In this document: piece after piece, positions 5,693 to 20,728 of the stretch
How the letters are laid out: each line of letters opens with the position of its first letter
Numbering within the stretch: position 1 is the stretch's first letter
Notes under the pieces: generated by a model
Told to the model about the DNA's origin: nothing
Seen by the model: the letters and a program-made list of their open reading frames with translations, nothing else
Databases searched by the model: none
Position numbers and translations under genes: made by a program
Source: Candidatus Brocadiia bacterium
GTDB lineage: Bacteria > Planctomycetota > Brocadiia > CAIUPP01
DNA: 64,000 nt
Direction: 5' to 3'
Assembly: GCA_050015075.1 (NCBI GenBank)
Contig: JBEKCB010000019.1
Span: 1-64,000, forward strand

Positions 5693-5709
5693 TTTTGCAG
5701 GAGACGGCC

Positions 5710-7047
5710 ATGAAATTCATCGTGACGGCCTGTGTGGCTGGCGCGCTTGCGGCGCTGCCGGCGGCCTTCGGCCAGACGGCGGATGAGAAGCCGGCCCGGA
5801 TCAACGTGCTGGCCGCGGAGACGTTCATGGCGGACATCGCGCAGAACGTCGCCGGCGACCGGCTGCGCGTCGAGTCCATGATGTCGTTCGGCGTGGACCC
5901 GCACACCTACGAACCGTCGCCCGGCGATATCCGCAAGGTGGCGCGCTGCCAGGTGCTCATCGTGAACGGCGCAGGCTATGAAGAGTTTCAGGAGCGGCTG
6001 CTGCAGAACGCCGGCGGGGAACATTTCGTGATCGTGGCCTCCAAGGGCCTCACCAGCCGGAACGCCCGCGAGGGCGAAGTCGCGGAGATGAGCAACGAGG
6101 ACGCCGCCGAGGCGATAACCTCCTCCGCCGCCGGCCTGAAGCCGCAGCCGGTCGCCGCCGGGAAGGACGCCGCATCCGCGGCAGCCCTGCCCGAGGAATC
6201 GGGCCTGTTCACGGTCAAGCTGGTGAAGATGGCCGACGGTTCCTTCGGCGGATTCATCGCTTACGCGACGGATGAGACCGCCGATTTCCAGATCGCGGTC
6301 GGCGCAGGTGAAGCCAGGGTGCTCAAGGCCGGCGGCGCCGAAGCGAAGCCGGCCGAAAAGACGCTGTCGCTCAACGGCCCCGCTCTCAAGCGCGGATACG
6401 TCGTCGAGCTGGCGAAGGGCGATAAATACGTCCTGGCTTTGACCGGCTTCGGGTCGCCCGAGACGCCGCTGCTCATCGGCGCGTTCGGCGAAGCGCCCCT
6501 CCGCGGCGATCCGCACTTCTGGCTCGATCCGACCAACGTCATCCGCTACGTCCGCAACATCCGCGACGGGCTGAGCCAGGCCGATCCGGCCGGCGCGGCG
6601 ATCTACGCCGGAAATGCCAAAACCTACACCGCCGAACTGGAGAAGCTCGACGCCTGGGTCAAGGAGCAGGTCGCCCGCGTGCCGCCGGACCGCCGGATGC
6701 TCGTGACGAGCCACGACTGCTTCGGCTATTTCGCCGACCACTACGGCTTCCGGGTCATCGGCACGATCGTCCCCAGCGTGAGCACGGAGGCCGCGCCGTC
6801 GGCCCGGCAGATCGCCCGGCTGGTGGACCGCGTCCGCGCCGCTCACGCGCCGGCGATCTTCGTCGAACCTGAAACGAACCCGCAGTTGGCGCAGCAAGTC
6901 GCACGGGAGACCGGCGTGAAGGTCGTCATGGACCTCTACCTGGAGACTCTCTCTGATCAGGACGGCCCGGCGCCGACCTATATGAAAATGATGCGACATA
7001 ACGTGACGCGGATCGTCACCACACTGTTGGAGGGCGCCCCGAAATGA
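5710..7047 (+). CDS. znuA: Zn/Mn ABC transporter solute-binding protein (ZnuA/TroA family) with a ~150-aa insertion
   Basis: GVDPHTYEPSP, VNGAGYE, GDPHFWLDP, VTSHDCFGYFA, YLETL; cleavable signal peptide; RBS AGGAG. Metal specificity not proven. Confidence 0.88.
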   Translation: MKFIVTACVAGALAALPAAFGQTADEKPARINVLAAETFMADIAQNVAGDRLRVESMMSFGVDPHTYEPSPGDIRKVARCQVLIVNGAGYEEFQERLLQNAGGEHFVIVASKGLTSRNAREGEVAEMSNEDAAEAITSSAAGLKPQPVAAGKDAASAAALPEESGLFTVKLVKMADGSFGGFIAYATDETADFQIAVGAGEARVLKAGGAEAKPAEKTLSLNGPALKRGYVVELAKGDKYVLALTGFGSPETPLLIGAFGEAPLRGDPHFWLDPTNVIRYVRNIRDGLSQADPAGAAIYAGNAKTYTAELEKLDAWVKEQVARVPPDRRMLVTSHDCFGYFADHYGFRVIGTIVPSVSTEAAPSARQIARLVDRVRAAHAPAIFVEPETNPQLAQQVARETGVKVVMDLYLETLSDQDGPAPTYMKMMRHNVTRIVTTLLEGAPK

Positions 7048-7847
7048 AAGGCGCGACCGTCGCTGTGCCGCCGTCAGCGGAAACCGCCATGATCGAACTG
7101 GAAGGGCTCACCGTAAGGTACGACGGCAAGCCAGCGATCGAGGATCTGAACGTGCAGATTCCGGCCGGCGAGCGCGTGGCGCTCGTGGGGCCGAACGGCG
7201 CCGGGAAGTCCACTCTCTTCAAGGCCATCATCGGCCTTCTGCCGTTCCAGGGCTGCGTGCTGATCCACGGGCTGCCTTACGGCGACCACCAGGACTGCGT
7301 CGCCTACGTTCCGCAGCGCGAGGAGGTGGATTGGCGGTTCCCCGTGACGGTCACCGACGTCGTGATGATGGGCCGCTACGGACGGTTCGGCCGTCTGAGT
7401 TGGCCGCGCCGCGAGGACAAGGACGCCGTCGCGCGCGGCCTGGAGGAGATGGGCATCGCCGACCTCGCCGACCGGCCCATCTCGATGCTGTCGGGCGGTC
7501 AGCAGCAGCGGGTCTTCCTCGCGCGCGCGCTCGCCCAGGACCCGCACGTCATTCTCCTTGATGAGCCGTTCACGGGCGTGGACGTTCCGACTCAGCGGGC
7601 CACGCTCGCCCTCCTCGAGCGGCTGCACGCCCGCGGCGTCACCGTCTTCGCCTCCACGCACGATCTCGACCTCGCCGCGTCGCAATTCGAGCGCGTGCTG
7701 CTCATCAACGGCACGGTCATCGCCTGCGGCAAGCCGGCGGAGGTCTTCACGCACGAGAACGTCACCCGCGCATTCCAGGGAAAAGTCCTGATGGTCGGCG
7801 GCGCGATCGTCGTGGACCACTGTTATTCGCCCCATCTGCACGAGTAG
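7044..7847 (+). CDS. znuC: Metal ABC transporter ATP-binding protein
   Basis: GPNGAGKST, AYVPQ, LSGGQQQRVFLARAL, LLDEPF, STHD; His/Cys tail DHCYSPHLHE. Confidence 0.9.
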   Translation: MKGATVAVPPSAETAMIELEGLTVRYDGKPAIEDLNVQIPAGERVALVGPNGAGKSTLFKAIIGLLPFQGCVLIHGLPYGDHQDCVAYVPQREEVDWRFPVTVTDVVMMGRYGRFGRLSWPRREDKDAVARGLEEMGIADLADRPISMLSGGQQQRVFLARALAQDPHVILLDEPFTGVDVPTQRATLALLERLHARGVTVFASTHDLDLAASQFERVLLINGTVIACGKPAEVFTHENVTRAFQGKVLMVGGAIVVDHCYSPHLHE

Positions 7848-7861
7848 GAGACCCCCCAACG

Positions 7862-8752
7862 ATGGCGTGGATTCCGCACGCGCTGCACTTTCTGGCGACC
7901 TGCATCCGGGAACCGCTGCAATATCCGTTCATGGTGCGCGCCCTCCTGGCCGGCATGATCGTCGGCGTGCTGTGCGCGGTCATCGGGTGCTACGTTGTGC
8001 TTCGCTCCATGGCATTCCTGGGCGACGCGATGGCCCACGCCATTCTGCCGGGCGTGGCGGTGGCGTGCCTTCTCGGAAAAGATCTCGCCTACGGAGCGCT
8101 CGTCGCGGCGCTCACGGTGGCGCTGGGGCTGAGTTTCTTCACGCGGCGCGGCACGGTCAAGGAGGACACGGCAATCGGCATCCTGTTCGCCGGCGCCTTC
8201 TCGCTCGGAGTGGCCCTCATCAGCACGATGAAGTCCTACGCGGCGCGCAATCTGACGGAGATCCTGTTCGGCAACATCCTCGGCGTGGCGCCGAAGGACC
8301 TCTGGCGGCTCGCCATACTGGCCGTCATCGTGCTGAGCGCCATCCTCCTGTACTACCGGGAGTTCCTGGTGATCTCGTTCGACCCGATCTTGGCGCTGAC
8401 GCTGAAGCTGAAGACGGAGCGGCTGCAACTGCTCATGTTCGTCCTGCTGGCGCTGACGATCGTCGTATCGCTTCAGACGGTCGGCGTCGGCCTGGCCGCG
8501 GGTATGCTCGTCACGCCGGGCGCGGCGGCCTATCTGCTGGCGAGGCGGCTTCCGAGAATGATGGCGATCGCCGCGGTCATCGGCGTCGTATCGAGCGTCG
8601 TCGGCGCCTATGCGAGCTACTGGTTCGACGTCGCCTCCGGCGCGGCGATCGTCCTGGCGGCCACCGGGATTTTCTTCCTGGCATTTCTCTTCGCGCCGGG
8701 CCGCGGACTGGTGTGGCAGCGCGCTTCGGGCCGCAAGGCCCGCCGCGCATGA
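7862..8752 (+). CDS. znuB: Metal ABC transporter permease (ABC-3 family)
   Basis: FMVRAL, GDAMAHAILPGVA, EDTAIGI, LFGNIL, SFDP; multiple TMs. Confidence 0.9.
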   Translation: MAWIPHALHFLATCIREPLQYPFMVRALLAGMIVGVLCAVIGCYVVLRSMAFLGDAMAHAILPGVAVACLLGKDLAYGALVAALTVALGLSFFTRRGTVKEDTAIGILFAGAFSLGVALISTMKSYAARNLTEILFGNILGVAPKDLWRLAILAVIVLSAILLYYREFLVISFDPILALTLKLKTERLQLLMFVLLALTIVVSLQTVGVGLAAGMLVTPGAAAYLLARRLPRMMAIAAVIGVVSSVVGAYASYWFDVASGAAIVLAATGIFFLAFLFAPGRGLVWQRASGRKARRA

Positions 8753-8788
8753 GGCGAACGCAAGTGTTGGAACCCTGGAGGCTGTTTC

Positions 8789-9076
8789 ATGCCGAAGAAA
8801 ATCGAGGTCGTAACGTTCAAGGCCGATGAGGCGCTGCGCGATGCGATGAAAGGCATCTCGAACCGATCGGAGTTCATTCGCAGCGCCGTGCTTCACGCGC
8901 TCGAGAGCGTTTGCCCGCTCTGCAAGGGAAGCGGCATTCTCACGCCGAACCAGAAGCGCCACTGGGACGCGTTCGCCCGCGACCACCAGTTGAAGGAATG
9001 CGCCAACTGCCATGAATTCAGCCTGGTCTGCGCGAAGACGCCGCGCCACCGCGTCCATCGCGGGGCCGCTCATTGA
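8789..9076 (+). CDS. Ribbon-helix-helix (CopG/NikR-like) regulator with C-terminal Cys/His metal-binding domain
   Basis: Beta strand VVTFKAD, helices EALRDAM and NRSEFIRSAVLHAL; then CPLC...H...H..ECANCH....C; RBS GGAGG. Confidence 0.82.
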   Translation: MPKKIEVVTFKADEALRDAMKGISNRSEFIRSAVLHALESVCPLCKGSGILTPNQKRHWDAFARDHQLKECANCHEFSLVCAKTPRHRVHRGAAH

Positions 9077-9114
9077 TTTGGCGTGGCGCCTGTGATAAAC
9101 TTACTCCACCGGAT

Positions 9115-9192
9115 GGTGAGAGTAGCTCAGTTGGTTAGAGCATCAGACTGTGGCTCTGAGGGTCGCGGGTTCGAATCCCGTCTCTCACCCCA
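9115..9192 (+). tRNA. tRNA-His (GTG)
   Basis: 8-bp acceptor stem GGTGAGAG/CTCTCACC including G-1, anticodon arm TCAGA-CTGTGGC-TCTGA, GGTTCGAATCC, encoded CCA. Confidence 0.97.
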
Positions 9193-9415
9193 ACGTATAA
9201 AAGCCGCTGCTGCCGGGGCACAGTGGCATCCGGCGAGGTGGCAGGCCGGTGTTCCTGATGGGCGGGTTTTGGCGGTTTTCGTCTTTCCTTGCGCGGGCCG
9301 GCGCCTGAAATTCAATTCAACTCGCAGACGAAAAGGCTCCACGTGCGGTTGGGGCGCGTGCTGTCTTCGCCAGGACCGGCGAGGTCCAGGATAGCGAAAG
9401 GAAAGGGGGCGCACC

Positions 9416-9796
9416 GTGAAGATCTTCGCGAGGTGGCCGGTTGGAATCGCAGCCGCAGCATGCGTGCTGGCAGCCGCCGCCATGATCGGCCTGGGGCAGA
9501 CGGAGCGCGCGCATCCGCTGGCGGCCACGTGGGAGTACGGCAGGCTTGTGGTGAATCTCGGCGAGAAAGAAACGAGCACTTGGACGCAAACGAATGGCGA
9601 CTTGATCGAGGACAGCTTGCAGAACCTGGGCCAGAGCTACCGTAAGCAGCATCCATCCGCCACAAATGTCGCCAATCCGGACCCCGAGATGGACGTGCTC
9701 TCGGCCATCGGCGCGTCCGGCTGGGAACTCGTCGCCATGCAGACCCGTGACAATGCCCGGTGGTTTTACTTCAAGCGAATCGCGCAGGCATACTAA
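9416..9796 (+). CDS. Small exported protein (DUF4177-like)
   Basis: Signal-like N-terminus; WEY...LSAIGASGWELVA...FYFKR pattern. Confidence 0.6.
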   Translation: MKIFARWPVGIAAAACVLAAAAMIGLGQTERAHPLAATWEYGRLVVNLGEKETSTWTQTNGDLIEDSLQNLGQSYRKQHPSATNVANPDPEMDVLSAIGASGWELVAMQTRDNARWFYFKRIAQAY

Positions 9797-15420: not shown

Positions 15421-17580
15421 TCAATCTCCCTGTCCCTGAATGCTGAAATAGAAAGTGCTGCCCTTTCCAGGCGTCGAGTCAATCCACATACGGCCGCCGT
15501 GGCGCTCCACGATCTTCTTGCAGATGGCCAGACCGATCCCGGTGCCTTGATATTTCTCCCGCGTGTGCAGCCGTTGGAAGATGACGAAGATCTGGTCCCA
15601 GTATTGCTTGTCAATCCCGATGCCGTTGTCCCGCACGGCGAAGGTCCATCGGCCGCCCTCGCGGCGCGCGGAGACGTGGATCTCCGGCGGCCGTTCGCTC
15701 CGGAACTTGATGGCGTTGACGATCAAGTTCTGAAGAAGCTGGATCATCTGCGTTTCGTCCGCCGTCACCGCAGGCAGCGGCTCGCTGGTGATTACCGCCC
15801 CGCTTTCCCTGATCGCATGCTGCACGATGGCCAGAACCTTGCCCAGCACCGCCTGCATGTCGGTCGGCTGGAAAGGCTTGGGCGCGCTGCTCACCCGGGA
15901 GTAGGCCAGCAGGTCGTTAATAAGCTGCTCCATATAGGCCGCGCCCTCGACGGCGAACTTGATGTACTTGTCCGCGTTGGCGTCGAGCTTGTCCTTGTAG
16001 CGCCGCTCGAGCAGTTGCAGGTAGCCGGTGACCACGCGCAGCGGCTCCTGCAGGTCGTGCGAGGCGACGTACGCGAAGTGGCGGAGTTCCTCGTTGGAGC
16101 GCGCCAACTCAACGCCCGCGCGCTGGAGCGCCTGCTCGTCGCGCTTGAGGTCGGTGATGTCCAGCCCGTAAATGCGGATGCACGGGCCTTCGTTGATGTA
16201 GATCAGCGACTGATGGTAGTGACGGTCGCCGACGGCCACGTCGCGGTCCTTCACCTGCGCGCCGCCTCTTTGGAAGCCGGCCGTCACCGCTTCCCAATCG
16301 CCCAGCCATGAATGACGGGCGCCTTTCTCCAGCAGGTCCGGCAACTGTTTCCTGGAGGCCGGGTTGGCATAGGTGACGCGCCCGTCCATGCTGATCTCGG
16401 TAATGGGAATCGGGTTGCGTTCCGGGAAGGAGGCAAGCCGGGCGCGCTCCGCCTCCGCGCGCTTGCGCCCGGTAATGTCGTGCGCGATGGTGGCGGCCCC
16501 CGCGATCCGTCCTGCCCCATCTTTGATCGGAGAAATGGTCAGCGAGACCTGGATCACCCGGCCGTCCTTGCGCATGCGGTCGGTTTCATAGCGCTCGACC
16601 GGCTCGCCCCTGCGGATTTTTCCCAGGAGCGCCGGCACTTCATCGGGGCGGTCCGGCGAGTGGAGGATGGAGATCGGCCGGCCGATGGCCTCTTCGGCGG
16701 AATAACCGTACATCATCTCGGCGCCCTGATTCCAGCTCTCAATCACGCCGTCGAGCGACTTTCCGATGATGGCTTCTTCGGAAGAGGTGATGATGGCCGC
16801 GAGGCGCTCAAGGGCGTCCTCCGTCCGCCGGCGCTCCGTGACGTCGGCCAACGTCAGAAGCACGTGCGGCCGCCCTTCCAGGGTCAGCGGGTCCGCGCTG
16901 ACTTCAAGACACAGGCGAACCTGTTTTCCGTGGACGAGGATCGCGGCTTCCGCCGGAACGCCATGGACGGGACTTCCCGAGCGCAGGACCGATTCGAACG
17001 AGTTGCGGATCGGACATGAAGCGCAATGCGCGGTATGGCCGCATCCGGCGGCGTCACCGAGGGCGTGAGCGCAGCCGACCAGGTCGCCCGGCTGGTCCTC
17101 GCGGATCGTCGCCGAGTCCTTCCCGATCCAGCGCGCGACCGTGTTGTTGACCCGTTTGACCGCGCCGGTCTGGTCAATCAGCATCATGCCCACGTTCACG
17201 GCATCGAAGATCGTCTGCAGATTAGCCCGCTCTCTGGCCAGCGACTCTTCCGCTCGCTTGCGGCCGGTGATGTCCATGAACAGCACGGCGAACTGGCGCG
17301 GGGACGGACGCCAGGCGAAGACCTCAAAGTGCCTTTTCAGAATCGTCGAGTAGTTTTCGAAATGTACGGGCTGGCCGTCTAAGGCCACCTGGCCGTAAAC
17401 CTCCACCCATTTCGGATCTTCGTTCGGCAGAACCTGCTTGAGAGTTTTGCCCAGCACGTCGGCGCGCTTGAGGCCGGTCAGTTGCTCGAAGGCCGGGTTG
17501 ATCTCCAGGAAGCGGTAATCGCAGGGCCGGCCCTGCTCGTCGCAGATGATCTCGTGCAGCGCGAACCCGTCAGTCATCAC
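15421..17580 (-). CDS. Multi-PAS sensor histidine kinase
   Basis: Four PAS-like segments; [48 protein letters not shown]. Confidence 0.93.
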
Positions 17581-17872
17581 CTGGCCCTTTGCCGCGGGCC
17601 GATTCGCACAGACGTTACGGCCGCCCCGGCGTCTGTCGCGAGTTCGCCCCGACTGCTCCGGCGCTCCATACCGGCCGATTCACCTACCGAATCATTACCC
17701 TACCTGAGACGGAGTGCCGATGTCAAGAAATGCACTGCCTGGCGGGCATTGGCGGTCTATCAGAATTATCGTCTGGAAAGCGGGTTTTCTTTAGTGGGAG
17801 TTCGTGGACACCACACCTGCGAGCGTTTTCCAGACAGAAGCCGACGGAGACGGCCCTGAGTGCTTCGCGGCC

Positions 17873-17901
17873 TTGAACTTGCCAATCCGGCATGCTACAC
17901 T
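17873..17901 (+). promoter_or_regulatory. Sigma70-type promoter
   Basis: TTGAAC 17873-17878, 17 bp, TACACT 17896-17901 with an extended -10 TG. Confidence 0.6.
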
Positions 17902-17912
17902 TCCGCGCAAGT

Positions 17913-17936
17913 CGCTATGTTATGTATAACATAGCG
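17913..17936. promoter_or_regulatory. ModE-type operator palindrome
   Basis: CGCTATGTTAT-GT-ATAACATAGCG, a perfect 11-bp inverted repeat in the CGnTATRT-N8-AYATAnCG format; a ModE wHTH gene lies 1.2 kb downstream. Confidence 0.8.
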
Positions 17937-18022
17937 CCGATGGGCGCGCGCGCGCCGAACACCTCAAGCGCACTCGCAAGCACGCCGGCCAGTGTCCATC
18001 CGGTTCAGTGGAGGAAGGCGTT

Positions 18023-19042
18023 ATGAGAGCGGGAATGGCGTTGGGAGTCGCAACGCTCGTGGCGGGCCTGGCGCTGTCGGGCCCTGTGGCGCACGGCCAG
18101 GATGATACGCAGCCGCAGTCGCAGAAGGACAAGGAGCGCATAGAGGCGCTGGAGAAGAAGATCGAAAAGCTCGAAGCGACCGAGAAGGCCCGGACAAAAA
18201 GCAGCGCGACTGCCGACGTGCTTCCCGCCGGCAGCGAGGGCATTCCGCCTTCCGAGTCCGCCGTGGAAGATTTCTTCAATGCCTGGTTTGACCGCGTGTC
18301 AAAAATCCAGGCGGAGCAACCGCACTGGATCACGCCGCTGGTGACCGTCACACCCCGTTTGGAGCAGGAGCTTCGTTACGACCAGTCATGGCAAAGGTTG
18401 CCCGGCGGCAAGACCCTGACGAATTACGACAATGGCAAAGGACTGGAGATAATCCCGGCTCTTCCCATCGAACTCATTGTCGGCGTGCCCCCTTGGGAAA
18501 CCGAAAACACTTCACCGCGCAAGCAAGGTTGGGCCGATGAAGCTTTCCTTCTCAAATACCGGTTGTTGTCCGCCAACGAGGAATCGGGCAATTACATCCT
18601 GACCGCGTTTATGGGCCTGTCCGTGCCGTGGGGCGGCGAGAACTACACGGAGGACCATTATATATTCACGCCGACCATCGCCTTCGGCAAAGGCTGGGGC
18701 GATTTCGACTTCCAAAGCACTTTGGGCATGTCCATACCTGACAACGGCGACTCGAAGTACGGCTCGGGAACGCCCCTTCTGTTTAACACGACTTTCCAGT
18801 ATCGGCTGCTGAAAATTCTTTGGCCGGAAGTGGAGTTCAATTGTACTGAATGGCCCAGTGGCAAGCACGAAGGAATTAATGACCAGGGTGGCCAGGTGTT
18901 TCTCACGCCGGGGCTGGTCATCGGACGAATCCCTATTGCGCACCGCCTGGCGCTGACCGTCGGCGCGGGTTATCAAGTCGCTCTGACCGACCATGCCCTC
19001 TACCACAACAGTTTCATTTTGTCGGTGCGGCTGCCGTTCTGA
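18023..19042 (+). CDS. Putative outer-membrane beta-barrel/porin of unknown family
   Basis: Signal peptide (AHG-Q), short coiled coil, amphipathic aromatic-rich beta strands, C-terminal VRLPF; RBS GGAGG. Confidence 0.7.
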   Translation: MRAGMALGVATLVAGLALSGPVAHGQDDTQPQSQKDKERIEALEKKIEKLEATEKARTKSSATADVLPAGSEGIPPSESAVEDFFNAWFDRVSKIQAEQPHWITPLVTVTPRLEQELRYDQSWQRLPGGKTLTNYDNGKGLEIIPALPIELIVGVPPWETENTSPRKQGWADEAFLLKYRLLSANEESGNYILTAFMGLSVPWGGENYTEDHYIFTPTIAFGKGWGDFDFQSTLGMSIPDNGDSKYGSGTPLLFNTTFQYRLLKILWPEVEFNCTEWPSGKHEGINDQGGQVFLTPGLVIGRIPIAHRLALTVGAGYQVALTDHALYHNSFILSVRLPF

Positions 19043-19128
19043 AGGGGAGAAACAGGACCGGGAAGCCGGCGAAATATTGTGGTGTCTCGGATGCGCGTGA
19101 TATAATCCGCGCTCCAGGAGGCCACGAA

Positions 19129-19476
19129 ATGCCGTTGACGCCGCGCTGCCGGGTCTGGCTTGAGAAGGATGGCCGCCCCGTGTTCGGGGACGGCCGCGCG
19201 CGGCTGTTGGAGGCGATCCGGCGGGTCGGTTCCATTAATGGCGGCGCGGCGACCATGGGCATGTCGTACCGAAATGCCTGGGTGCATCTGAATCACATGG
19301 AGCAGCGGCTCGGCGTGAAACTCGTCGCGCGCCGCGTCGGCGGCTCACACGGCGGCGGCTGCCACCTCACGCCCGCCGGCGAACGGCTTCTGACCGCTTA
19401 CCGCGAGTATCGGAAGCTGCTGGATCGCGATATGCTCAAACTCTGGCGAAAGACGTTACCGCGAACACGCCGGTGA
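19129..19476 (+). CDS. ModE-family winged-HTH regulator without Mop domains
   Basis: FGDGRARLLEAI..VGSI..A...GMSYRNAW..L...E......LVARRVGGSHGGGCHLTPAG; own TGnTATAAT at 19098-19106. Confidence 0.88.
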   Translation: MPLTPRCRVWLEKDGRPVFGDGRARLLEAIRRVGSINGGAATMGMSYRNAWVHLNHMEQRLGVKLVARRVGGSHGGGCHLTPAGERLLTAYREYRKLLDRDMLKLWRKTLPRTRR

Positions 19477-19512: not shown

Positions 19513-20544
19513 TTACTTGCCGGGGGCCCTCTTCAGCGCCAGCAACTGGGCCTCGCGCACGAGGTCCACATAGCGGGTGAAGCTCACTTCAAGCCCATTT
19601 TGCGGGTCGGCCCAGAGCGCCGCCTGGATTTTGTCGAGCGCGCCCTGGCAGCGGCTGGTCAGCGCGGATTCGAACCGCGACTGCATAAGCCAATAGTCCG
19701 CCGCGGCGGCGAGTACGCCCACCGCGGTCCCGACAACGGCCGCACGCTTGGAGTTGGAATCGTGCGCCTCCATCGTCTCGGTGACCTTCCTGCGCATCGC
19801 CTCTTCGACAACCACGCTTTTCGCCAGGGAACTCACGCTGCTGGTCGGCACCTGCTCGGCCTGCGACCCGAGGAACCGCGCAAGCTGCCCGCTGAAATCG
19901 GCCAGCAGCAGGTCCATGTTCGCCGCGATGGGCGCGCTCGGCAGATCAATGGCCGGTGCGCCTGATGCGAGGACGAGGTTGCGGTTGGCCTCGACGTCGC
20001 GCTGAAATGCCGCGACCACCGCCGCGACGTCGCTGCGTAGTTTCTCGGGCGGGACCACGTTCTCCGCGAAGAGCTTGGCCGCCTCCGCCTGGGTTTCGTT
20101 GCTGGTCTGCGATTTATCCTCGATCAGGGTCCTGGCCAGCCGCGCCTTCTCGGGCAGCGTGTTCAGCGCCTCGATAAACTGCGGGACGCGCGCCGAGTAG
20201 CGCCTGAAGTCTTCGTCCAGCCGGAGCCTGGCCGTCGCGATTGCGGCGATGTTGCGATCGTGCTCCATCTCGATGAGCCGCCCGACGTGCTCAGCGGCGG
20301 AATCGTCCAACGGCGTCTTCGTCTCGACCGCCGCGCCCGGCCGCAGTGGCGCCGGAGCGCGCGTCGGCGGCTGAATCTGGCTTCGCGTCGGCGGTGAAGC
20401 CGGGCCGCGCAAGGCCAGTTCGCGCGTGTGCAGTCGCATCGCCCACGCGGCGAGAATAATCGCTGCGCCCACGATGAAGACGAGGAGTATGCCAAGAAAG
20501 AGTTCTCGCGCCGGGGTTCGACGATGTGGTTCCATCTCGCCCAT
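19513..20544 (-). CDS. Hypothetical membrane-anchored helical protein
   Basis: N-terminal TM, Pro linker, helical body, second hydrophobic segment; RBS GGAGGA before ATG 20544. Confidence 0.65.
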   Translation of the reverse strand: MGEMEPHRRTPARELFLGILLVFIVGAAIILAAWAMRLHTRELALRGPASPPTRSQIQPPTRAPAPLRPGAAVETKTPLDDSAAEHVGRLIEMEHDRNIAAIATARLRLDEDFRRYSARVPQFIEALNTLPEKARLARTLIEDKSQTSNETQAEAAKLFAENVVPPEKLRSDVAAVVAAFQRDVEANRNLVLASGAPAIDLPSAPIAANMDLLLADFSGQLARFLGSQAEQVPTSSVSSLAKSVVVEEAMRRKVTETMEAHDSNSKRAAVVGTAVGVLAAAADYWLMQSRFESALTSRCQGALDKIQAALWADPQNGLEVSFTRYVDLVREAQLLALKRAPGK

Positions 20545-20728
20545 TGCTTCTCCTCCGCTGCCGCCCACTGGATCGCGTGGCCGGCGCCGGCCACCCCAGC
20601 GCCTGACCCGCCATCATCTTACTCCGGCGGCGGACGATATGCCAACTCTTCCAGCGGAGGAAACGGCGGGGCTATTCGCCGGGCGTTGAGGCGGCCGATC
20701 TTCGCGATCATGGGCAGTATCGGCTGCG

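Follow-up and report, generated by a model that had tools for sequence, protein, structure and literature searches.

Starvation-induced anion porins that are paired with ATP-binding cassette (ABC) importers are known, for instance OprP/OprO, or PhoE with the Pst system. For molybdenum and tungsten (Mo/W), the known published exceptions to passage through porins involve secreted or energised systems. Molybdate and tungstate presumably pass through the outer membrane by way of porins, as passages of a review put it (PMC3417520). Repression of modABC by ModE-molybdate in E. coli, and a Geobacter sulfurreducens site, feature a 24-bp inverted repeat of the form CGnTAT...ATAnCG at the promoter (passages of PMC545781). 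Here we analyzed a 64,000-nucleotide stretch of DNA (the window; contig JBEKCB010000019.1 of the Candidatus Brocadiia bacterium assembly GCA_050015075.1, which has 4,643,879 bases in 66 contigs and is 93.6% complete). At positions 17873-19476 it holds, in this order, a candidate promoter, an inverted repeat, a gene for a 339-aa predicted outer-membrane barrel protein (OMP), an 86-bp gap and a gene for a 115-aa ModE-like regulator, ModE_N (Table 1). Judging from sequence comparison and genomic context, we consider it reasonably probable that the barrel is a channel made under molybdenum starvation for the uptake of molybdate, and that ModE_N represses it through the inverted repeat.

The inverted repeat has the format of a ModE box. 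A preliminary description, made from the letters of the window, had called it a perfect 24-bp ModE-format palindrome. The repeat search recovered two arms of 11 nt (17913-17923 and 17926-17936) that are 100% complementary and 2 nt apart, so the format and the perfect arms stand; "perfect 24-bp" slightly overstates the case, because 22 of the 24 positions are palindromic and the central GT is not self-complementary. The E. coli consensus is quoted as ATCGnTATATA-N6-TATATAnCGAT in a passage of PMC545781, and the window site, CGCTATGTT-ATGTAT-AACATAGCG, matches 12 of the 16 specified positions of its 24-bp core, CGnTATATA-N6-TATATAnCG. The expected number of such sites in shuffled window sequence is 0.00. 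A relaxed ModE pattern (CGNTATNT-N8-ANATANCG) occurs in the whole assembly at this site only, and no second site lies within 5 mismatches of the operator anywhere in the assembly. The genome contains five perfect AT-rich 11+11 palindromes, this one included, and it is the sole one in ModE format.

A promoter-like sequence is indeed visible upstream of the box, with a putative -35 element at 17873-17878 and a putative -10 element at 17896-17901, about 12 nt before the operator. The preliminary description called this promoter clean, which is generous: of the 12 consensus positions 8 agree, and a consensus promoter scan did not pick it up. In the sister locus (L005), from a metagenome-assembled genome (MAG) that is also labelled Candidatus Brocadiia, the promoter candidate is identical, both arms of the box are identical, and the center of the box is different. 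The OMP is 80% identical there and the gene order is the same; the two upstream regions are otherwise 86% identical. A GC-rich stretch of about 36 bp directly after the window box (17937-17975, CCGATGGGCGCGCGCGCGCC...) is absent from L005.

The 115-aa protein is the sole match in the genome to the ModE_repress model (TIGR00637; 79 bits, E 2e-22, below the curated cut-off of 98.5), and it also matches HTH_1 (PF00126). Its best match in the PDB is 2ijl (E 8.9e-11), a protein of 135 aa named "molybdenum-binding transcriptional repressor", and it aligns to residues 17-93 of E. coli ModE (1b9m), that is, to the N-terminal domain. These matches fit the assignment of the gene, in the preliminary description, to the ModE winged helix-turn-helix (wHTH) proteins. 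Domain scans found no TOBE/Mop match in the protein, and there is no room for such a domain before the convergent gene, which ends at 19513, just past the modE_N stop at 19476. ModE_N thus resembles other Mop-less ModE proteins that consist of the DNA-binding domain alone, such as 2ijl, the products of the Desulfovibrio single-domain ModE genes and C. jejuni ModE. It differs from the Desulfovibrio proteins in its predicted operator, which is E. coli-like here, whereas the Desulfovibrio proposal is CGGTCACG-N14-CGTGACCG (passages of PMC545781). As in E. coli, a ModE-type wHTH protein is encoded beside the box; the differences from the E. coli arrangement are the lack of the Mop di-domain, the outer-membrane gene as putative target, and a modABC operon without a box. 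The window ModE_N is 90% identical to its counterpart in L005 and only 33-36% identical to the ModE_N proteins of modABC-linked operons.

How single-domain ModE proteins sense molybdenum is described as unclear in passages of PMC545781 and PMC3417520. The genome encodes one stand-alone TOBE gene, for a 69-aa Mop/TOBE protein with a SARN motif, on contig C8 (G000:C8:102000-102209, equivalent to L087:6001-6210), with no Mo gene beside it. This protein might serve the Mop-less ModE as sensing partner. A predicted complex of two ModE_N and two stand-alone Mop chains scored 0.00, which is no answer and no evidence either way on a split sensor.

To place the unit, we compared it with related loci from species-representative genomes (the best 80 of at least 579). 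Genes were called on 79 of them by a GC3-weighted caller in which the OMP frame is imposed; one locus (L032), in which the OMP open reading frame (ORF) runs off the contig, was left out of all counts. Among the ten relatives with a ModE_N neighbor, nine have a ModE-format AT-rich palindrome before the OMP gene. Searched with a strict regular expression, the 49,138 bp that lie upstream of the 79 OMP genes gave 12 sites (12 genes), and the remaining 1,088,707 bp of those loci gave only three, which are poor and non-palindromic. In shuffled upstream regions the mean number of loci with a site was 0.10 and the maximum was 2. When ten upstream regions are aligned, conservation is confined to a single block, the box (CGWTATATTTGACAAAATATAWCG), which often has TTGACA inside it. 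In five boxed loci (L006-L009 and L017) the OMP gene is directly followed by modA, and in L006-L009 the operon continues as modABC-moaD. The box is therefore conserved at the promoters of genes for Mo uptake or utilization. Like the window, three of the 12 boxed loci (L012, L016 and L021) are orphans without a Mo gene in the vicinity. A search of the whole genomes of L005, L010 and L016 matched nowhere but at the site in front of the barrel gene. The genome of L012 (G004) has a second ModE-format palindrome (L091, G004:C38:1268-4291, site at 1501-1524), which adjoins the gene for a PEP-CTERM protein and that for a GntR/periplasmic-binding-type regulator; the 3 kb examined contain no Mo gene.

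A quick maximum-likelihood tree (IQ-TREE) groups the window protein with its L005 counterpart (support 100) and makes the two sister (support 86, not starred) to the OMPs of four modE_N-box-OMP-modA-modB-modC-moaD operons. From this placement, the two-gene unit of the window looks like the head of such an operon that has become detached. On the tree the ModE/box label forms clusters, with 7 changes against a mean of 13.1 for shuffled labels, and none of 500 shuffles was as low. We disregarded a branch of length 10 (L027), an artefact of trimming an over-extended ORF.

The association with Mo/W genes extends to relatives with other regulators. We clustered the neighbors by BLAST, annotated cluster representatives or whole clusters, and counted a gene as linked when it lay within four genes of the OMP gene. 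A ModA/WtpA-type binding protein is linked in 27 of the 79 loci and directly adjacent in 24, a ModB/WtpB-type permease is linked in 17 and a ModC/WtpC-type ATPase in 16. All 28 clustered binding proteins were scanned, and 11 match ModA models and 17 WtpA models. Regulators with HTH_3 and PBP_like (PF12727) domains are linked in 20 loci (adjacent in 15), ModE_N in 10, Mop in 4, MoaD in 4, a sulfite-oxidase-type domain in 6 and an XDH-type Mo subunit in 3. In all, 46 of the 79 loci have at least one of these Mo/W genes within four genes and 33 have none. Chance adjacency to a modA gene, of which the window's own genome has a single copy, would by our estimate, which is not a computed value, be well under one percent. 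The preliminary description had proposed looking for modA neighbors and ModE boxes in homologs; the 46 linked loci, the 24 adjacent binding proteins and the 12 strict boxes answer in its favor.

The regulators with PF12727, which is carried by all 21 members of the HTH_3+PBP_like cluster, recall the TaoR-type HTH + PBP_like Mo/W regulators cited in a passage of PMC11980592, in that the OMP family adjoins a PBP_like sensor domain in those 20 loci. They differ from TaoR in bearing an HTH_3 (XRE) head rather than HTH_17, and none occurs in the window's own genome. Between the divergent regulator and barrel genes, 10 of 14 intergenic regions share a TGCCAT..TACTTGTCA-N~13-ATCATGGCATA motif (L026:7833, L031:7784, L036:7833, L047:7896, L057:7854, L061:7924, L065:7896, L073:7939, L082:2019 and L084:4464). 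We take this motif as a candidate for the operator and the promoter of a TaoR-like Mo/W regulator whose head is of the XRE type.

The window barrel protein matches no Pfam or NCBIfam family. In particular, neither the PF13557 profile (E up to 0.1) nor the OprP/OprO profile (PF07396) matches it, although PF13557 weakly matches 8 of 44 relatives (best E 2.7e-6). A profile of the OMP family found no match among PDB sequences, and the ESM Atlas returned clusters labelled "hypothetical / transporter family" only, with PF13557 on 15% of one cluster. The family itself is large. At least 4,269 relatives were found at E <= 0.001 among 8,000 candidates scored, and a profile search yielded 1,357 representatives (50% identity), of which 262 reach E <= 1e-30. 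They come mainly from peat and soil MAGs of Verrucomicrobiota, Acidobacteriota, Binatota, Planctomycetota and Myxococcota. Conservation in the family is strong: across 44 sequences the columns average 52% identity, a block around QPHW..TP..TVTPRLE.E.RYD is invariant, and W88, R91, Q96, Q99, P100 and W102 are the same in all of them. The window protein ends in ...RLPF.

An AlphaFold2 model built on the family alignment (predicted local distance difference test (pLDDT) 76.5, predicted template-modelling (TM) score 0.66) shows a helix (32-63), a low-confidence linker (61-72), a second helix (80-98) and, after it, strands that continue up to the C-terminus; residues 1-29 have pLDDT values under 50. 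The first helix lies in a region that varies among relatives and that weakly matches the coiled-coil family ABC_tran_CTD. The model barrel has 15 DSSP strand segments; it would be a small barrel of the 12-strand type, and helix 80-98 may sit in or near the lumen. By analogy with FapF and Pput2725, this helix is a candidate plug. Foldseek against the PDB returned outer-membrane barrels exclusively (FapF, the COG4313 channel 4rl8, KdgM, PcoB and OmpG), the best matches being FapF (E 2.8e-6) and 4rl8 (E 3.5e-5, target TM 0.55). A structure prediction, which the preliminary description had named as a check for a barrel fold, thus gave one.

The predicted fold has two close described counterparts. 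FapF of Pseudomonas (5o65, 5o68) combines a coiled coil and a disordered linker with a plug helix and a barrel, and is a polypeptide secretion pore (passages of PMC5557850). The model shows the same elements in the same order. The differences are a sequence identity of 11-13%, the absence of fap genes nearby and an expected cargo that would be a small oxyanion rather than a polypeptide: the neighbors in the window are the genes for a PAS histidine kinase, ModE_N and a protein without family match, and those in relatives are Mo/W genes. The COG4313/PF13557 channels (Pput2725/4rl8, TcpY and SphA) likewise have a small barrel after an N-terminal segment and a similar mature length; in the model, helix 80-98 precedes the barrel, and the fold matches 4rl8. 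The window protein differs from them in lacking a PF13557 match and in having an added periplasmic coiled coil. The genomic partners also differ, being Mo/W importers for the window family and aromatic or lipid catabolism genes for the COG4313 channels. The window protein is a distant, unnamed branch of COG4313/PF13557-like barrels and not a fold without relatives.

The preliminary description noted that the window has no modABC, and the only modA match of the genome is in fact on contig C5, where modABC is found with moeA, moaA and a MOSC-MoCF gene; ModC there carries a TOBE domain. In this locus (L004, G000:C5:35000-53000), modA and modB occupy one open frame of 649 aa (about 7752-9701) that matches SBP_bac_11 at residues 177-400 and BPD_transp_1 at 446-632. 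Either ModA and ModB are fused here or the ORF has been called too long. About 5 kb downstream of this frame lies the gene for a PF00384 enzyme. Rfam gave no match, and thus no molybdenum cofactor (Moco) riboswitch, on the modABC/Moco locus or the window region. In keeping with Mo use, the genome encodes three PF00384 enzymes and two XDH-type enzymes besides this cluster. No WtpA, AFOR or PBP_like regulator was found in the genome (93.6% complete; TupA-type binding proteins were not searched for), which makes molybdate the likelier substrate here, as far as gene content can tell. The channel had originally been proposed for molybdate or tungstate; the linkage of the family supports a Mo/W role, and tungstate is less likely in this genome.

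In the reading that we favor, the product of 18023-19042 would be the outer-membrane channel of a molybdate acquisition system (tungstate in other lineages). With sufficient Mo, a dimer of the adjacent Mop-less ModE_N would sit on the 24-bp repeat just downstream of the promoter and block transcription. Under Mo scarcity, which is plausible in peat, ModE_N would leave the site and the channel would be made. Through it, molybdate would cross the outer membrane and reach ModA in the periplasm, which belongs to the ModABC importer encoded, unlinked, on contig C5. The predicted parts of the channel protein are a coiled coil in the periplasm, a linker, a conserved helix possibly occluding or gating the pore, and the small barrel. 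The dedicated oxyanion porin of the preliminary description is supported by the barrel fold model, the Mo/W linkage and the boxes in relatives, from which we infer its channel function. On this sequence-based evidence the window protein is probably the missing outer-membrane entry gate for molybdate/tungstate.

A wider reading, which we put forward tentatively and with slightly more doubt than belief, is that an unnamed and widespread family of gated FapF-like channels is dedicated to acquiring molybdate/tungstate, with the window protein as the first member whose genomic context is described. In this wider reading two unrelated sensors would have recruited the family independently, namely the Mop-less ModE with E. 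coli-like boxes and the HTH_3+PBP_like regulators with an operator of their own. ModE would moreover control the outer-membrane gate rather than the ABC importer, as the channel promoter is the only recognizable ModE target in this genome and in at least three others.

Several observations weigh against molybdate uptake under ModE control. Genome-wide pattern, mismatch and palindrome searches found no ModE-format site at the modABC/Moco cluster, so the regulator does not visibly control the importer in this genome. The regulator lacks a molybdate-binding domain, so that Mo-responsiveness cannot be seen in its sequence. The match of the proposed promoter to the consensus is weak. The linkage is frequent without being universal, as 33 of the 79 related loci have no Mo/W gene within four genes. 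With 41 D+E vs 28 K+R, the mature protein has a net acidic composition, the conserved residues that strand parity would place in the lumen mix acids and bases, and in this strand-parity reading the predicted lumen-facing conserved residues form no obvious arginine/basic ladder of the kind seen in anion porins. Finally, the best fold match, FapF, is a secretion pore, and TcpY, SphA and Pput2725, the only characterized members of COG4313, the nearest superfamily, are linked to hydrophobic substrates (passages of PMC4493636).

The last of these points bear on the cargo. The barrel could belong to Mo/W homeostasis and yet carry a Mo/W-chelator complex, or a small hydrophobic or amphipathic ligand taken up under Mo limitation, a reading that gains from the resemblance to 4rl8, the weak PF13557 matches in 8 of 44 relatives, the net acidic sequence and the lack of a clear basic ladder. 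Members of COG4313 have been tied to trichlorophenol and to sphingosine, and a hydrophilic channel was rated an improbable role for Pput2725, although it let ions and small polar solutes through in vitro (passages of PMC4493636). The adjacent partners in relatives are ModA/WtpA oxyanion-binding proteins and their ABC permeases, with no chelator biosynthesis or TonB genes among the annotated neighbors, and we regard such a cargo as unlikely. If instead the FapF layout were taken at face value, from the best fold matches and the shared order of coiled coil, disordered linker, helix and barrel, the protein would be a gated secretion pore, or a structural outer-membrane protein that tethers or docks a periplasmic partner. 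This is very unlikely given the low identity to FapF, the absence of amyloid or secretion genes among the neighbors and the importer components that accompany the relatives.

Other doubts concern the regulator. The unit might be a leftover pair, in which the OMP is a general or hydrophobic-compound channel and the short ModE-like protein a local, Mo-independent autoregulator of the two genes. The missing Mop domain, the unlinked and boxless modABC, the lack of another target site in the genome and the low identity to the ModE_N of modABC-linked operons (33-36%) would all fit. We find this quite unlikely because the arrangement and both half-sites are kept in L005, the protein is grouped with OMPs whose genes stand first in modABC operons, Mo/W linkage across the family far exceeds chance expectation, and a stand-alone Mop with a SARN motif is present in the genome. 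A reversal of the regulation, with ModE_N as an activator at high Mo of a channel that releases or excludes excess oxyanion (detoxification), appears highly improbable. ModE can activate some operons (a passage of PMC11980592), and repression is a prediction here, but the box lies downstream of the candidate promoter in the window and overlaps TTGACA in relatives, which is a repressor geometry, and co-transcription with high-affinity importers argues for uptake.

Uptake of molybdate through a ModE-controlled channel, which remains our preferred reading, would resemble OprP/OprO, and PhoE with Pst, in placing an outer-membrane channel under nutrient-responsive control shared with a high-affinity binding-protein importer, often by co-transcription. 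It would differ from OprP/OprO in its barrel family (no PF07396), in its net acidic character without an evident arginine ladder, and in serving nutrient Mo/W rather than phosphate. Full-text literature searches, which did not extend to supplementary tables (e.g. those of the Geobacter ModE regulon, PMC2700814), turned up no publication that describes a barrel of this family under Mo/W regulation. If the reading is true, a dedicated Mo-regulated channel family would add the missing outer-membrane step of Mo/W acquisition. The family is common in acidic peat and soil bacteria, where Mo availability is thought to limit enzymes of nitrogen and carbon cycling, and the barrel gene would be a marker of Mo limitation in metagenomes and metatranscriptomes. 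The unit is also a tractable case for how a ModE without a molybdate-binding domain senses the metal. The DNA is contained in 24 sequencing runs, all of them peat or wetland metagenomes, with no RNA run among those listed.

Table 1. Features of the two-gene unit, in window positions
Feature	Position	Strand	Basis
Putative sigma-70-type promoter, TTGAAC-N17-TACACT	17873..17901	+	read by eye; putative function
ModE-format operator CGCTATGTTAT-GT-ATAACATAGCG, 11+2+11 inverted repeat	17913..17936	.	repeat search, genome pattern search
Barrel gene (339 aa, single copy in genome; candidate molybdate channel)	18023..19042	+	translation, fold, relatives
Signal-peptide-like N-terminus, aa 1-25, ...PVAHG/QDD, no lipobox Cys	18023..18097	+	translation; cleavage site read by eye
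Predicted periplasmic helix, aa 32-63 (KERIEALEKKIEKLEATEKARTK), coiled-coil-like	18116..18211	+	model helix H32-63
Conserved helix, aa 80-98, then QPHW; candidate plug / lumen-occluding segment	18260..18316	+	model helix H80-98
Predicted beta-barrel, aa 116-339, ending in F339	18368..19039	+	model strands, fold matches
TGaTATAAT, candidate extended -10-like motif in the 86-bp gap before modE_N	19098..19106	+	read by eye
Predicted ModE N-terminal wHTH-only regulator, 115 aa, without Mop/TOBE domain	19129..19476	+	domain scans, PDB matches

The barrel gene is preceded by a GGAGGA Shine-Dalgarno sequence at 18010-18015. The extended -10-like motif before modE_N was not called by the consensus promoter scan. 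The unit is flanked on one side by a gene for a histidine kinase with three PAS domains (15421-17580, minus strand) and on the other by a gene for a 351-aa protein without any family match (19513-20568, minus strand), and the synteny with L005 extends to both. The stretch that separates the divergent histidine-kinase gene from the OMP promoter contains a 12-nt inverted repeat (GTCTGGAAAGCG / CGTTTTCCAGAC, 17771-17835) that is 92% complementary, with a 41-nt loop.

Elsewhere in the window, within 5695-8752, a ZnuA-type binding protein of 450 aa is encoded near an ABC-3 permease. The 263-position profile is stretched over its residues 38-442, which implies a large insert.

The palindrome searches also brought up two recurrent families in the genome. 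The palindrome CGTAAATTGG-N4-CCAATTTACG, which could be a regulon operator or a repeat element, has at least 13 scattered copies (C3:1052, C3:190545, C4:148256, C6:97570, C12:30636, C23:16213, C23:58195, C24:6263, C25:203, C25:54310, C26:60439, C41:4951 and C53:1178). The second family, GAGTGATGAAG-N2-CTTCATCACTC, occurs at C36:38325, C22:33850, C5:79104, C21:3051, C22:48994 and C9:73029.

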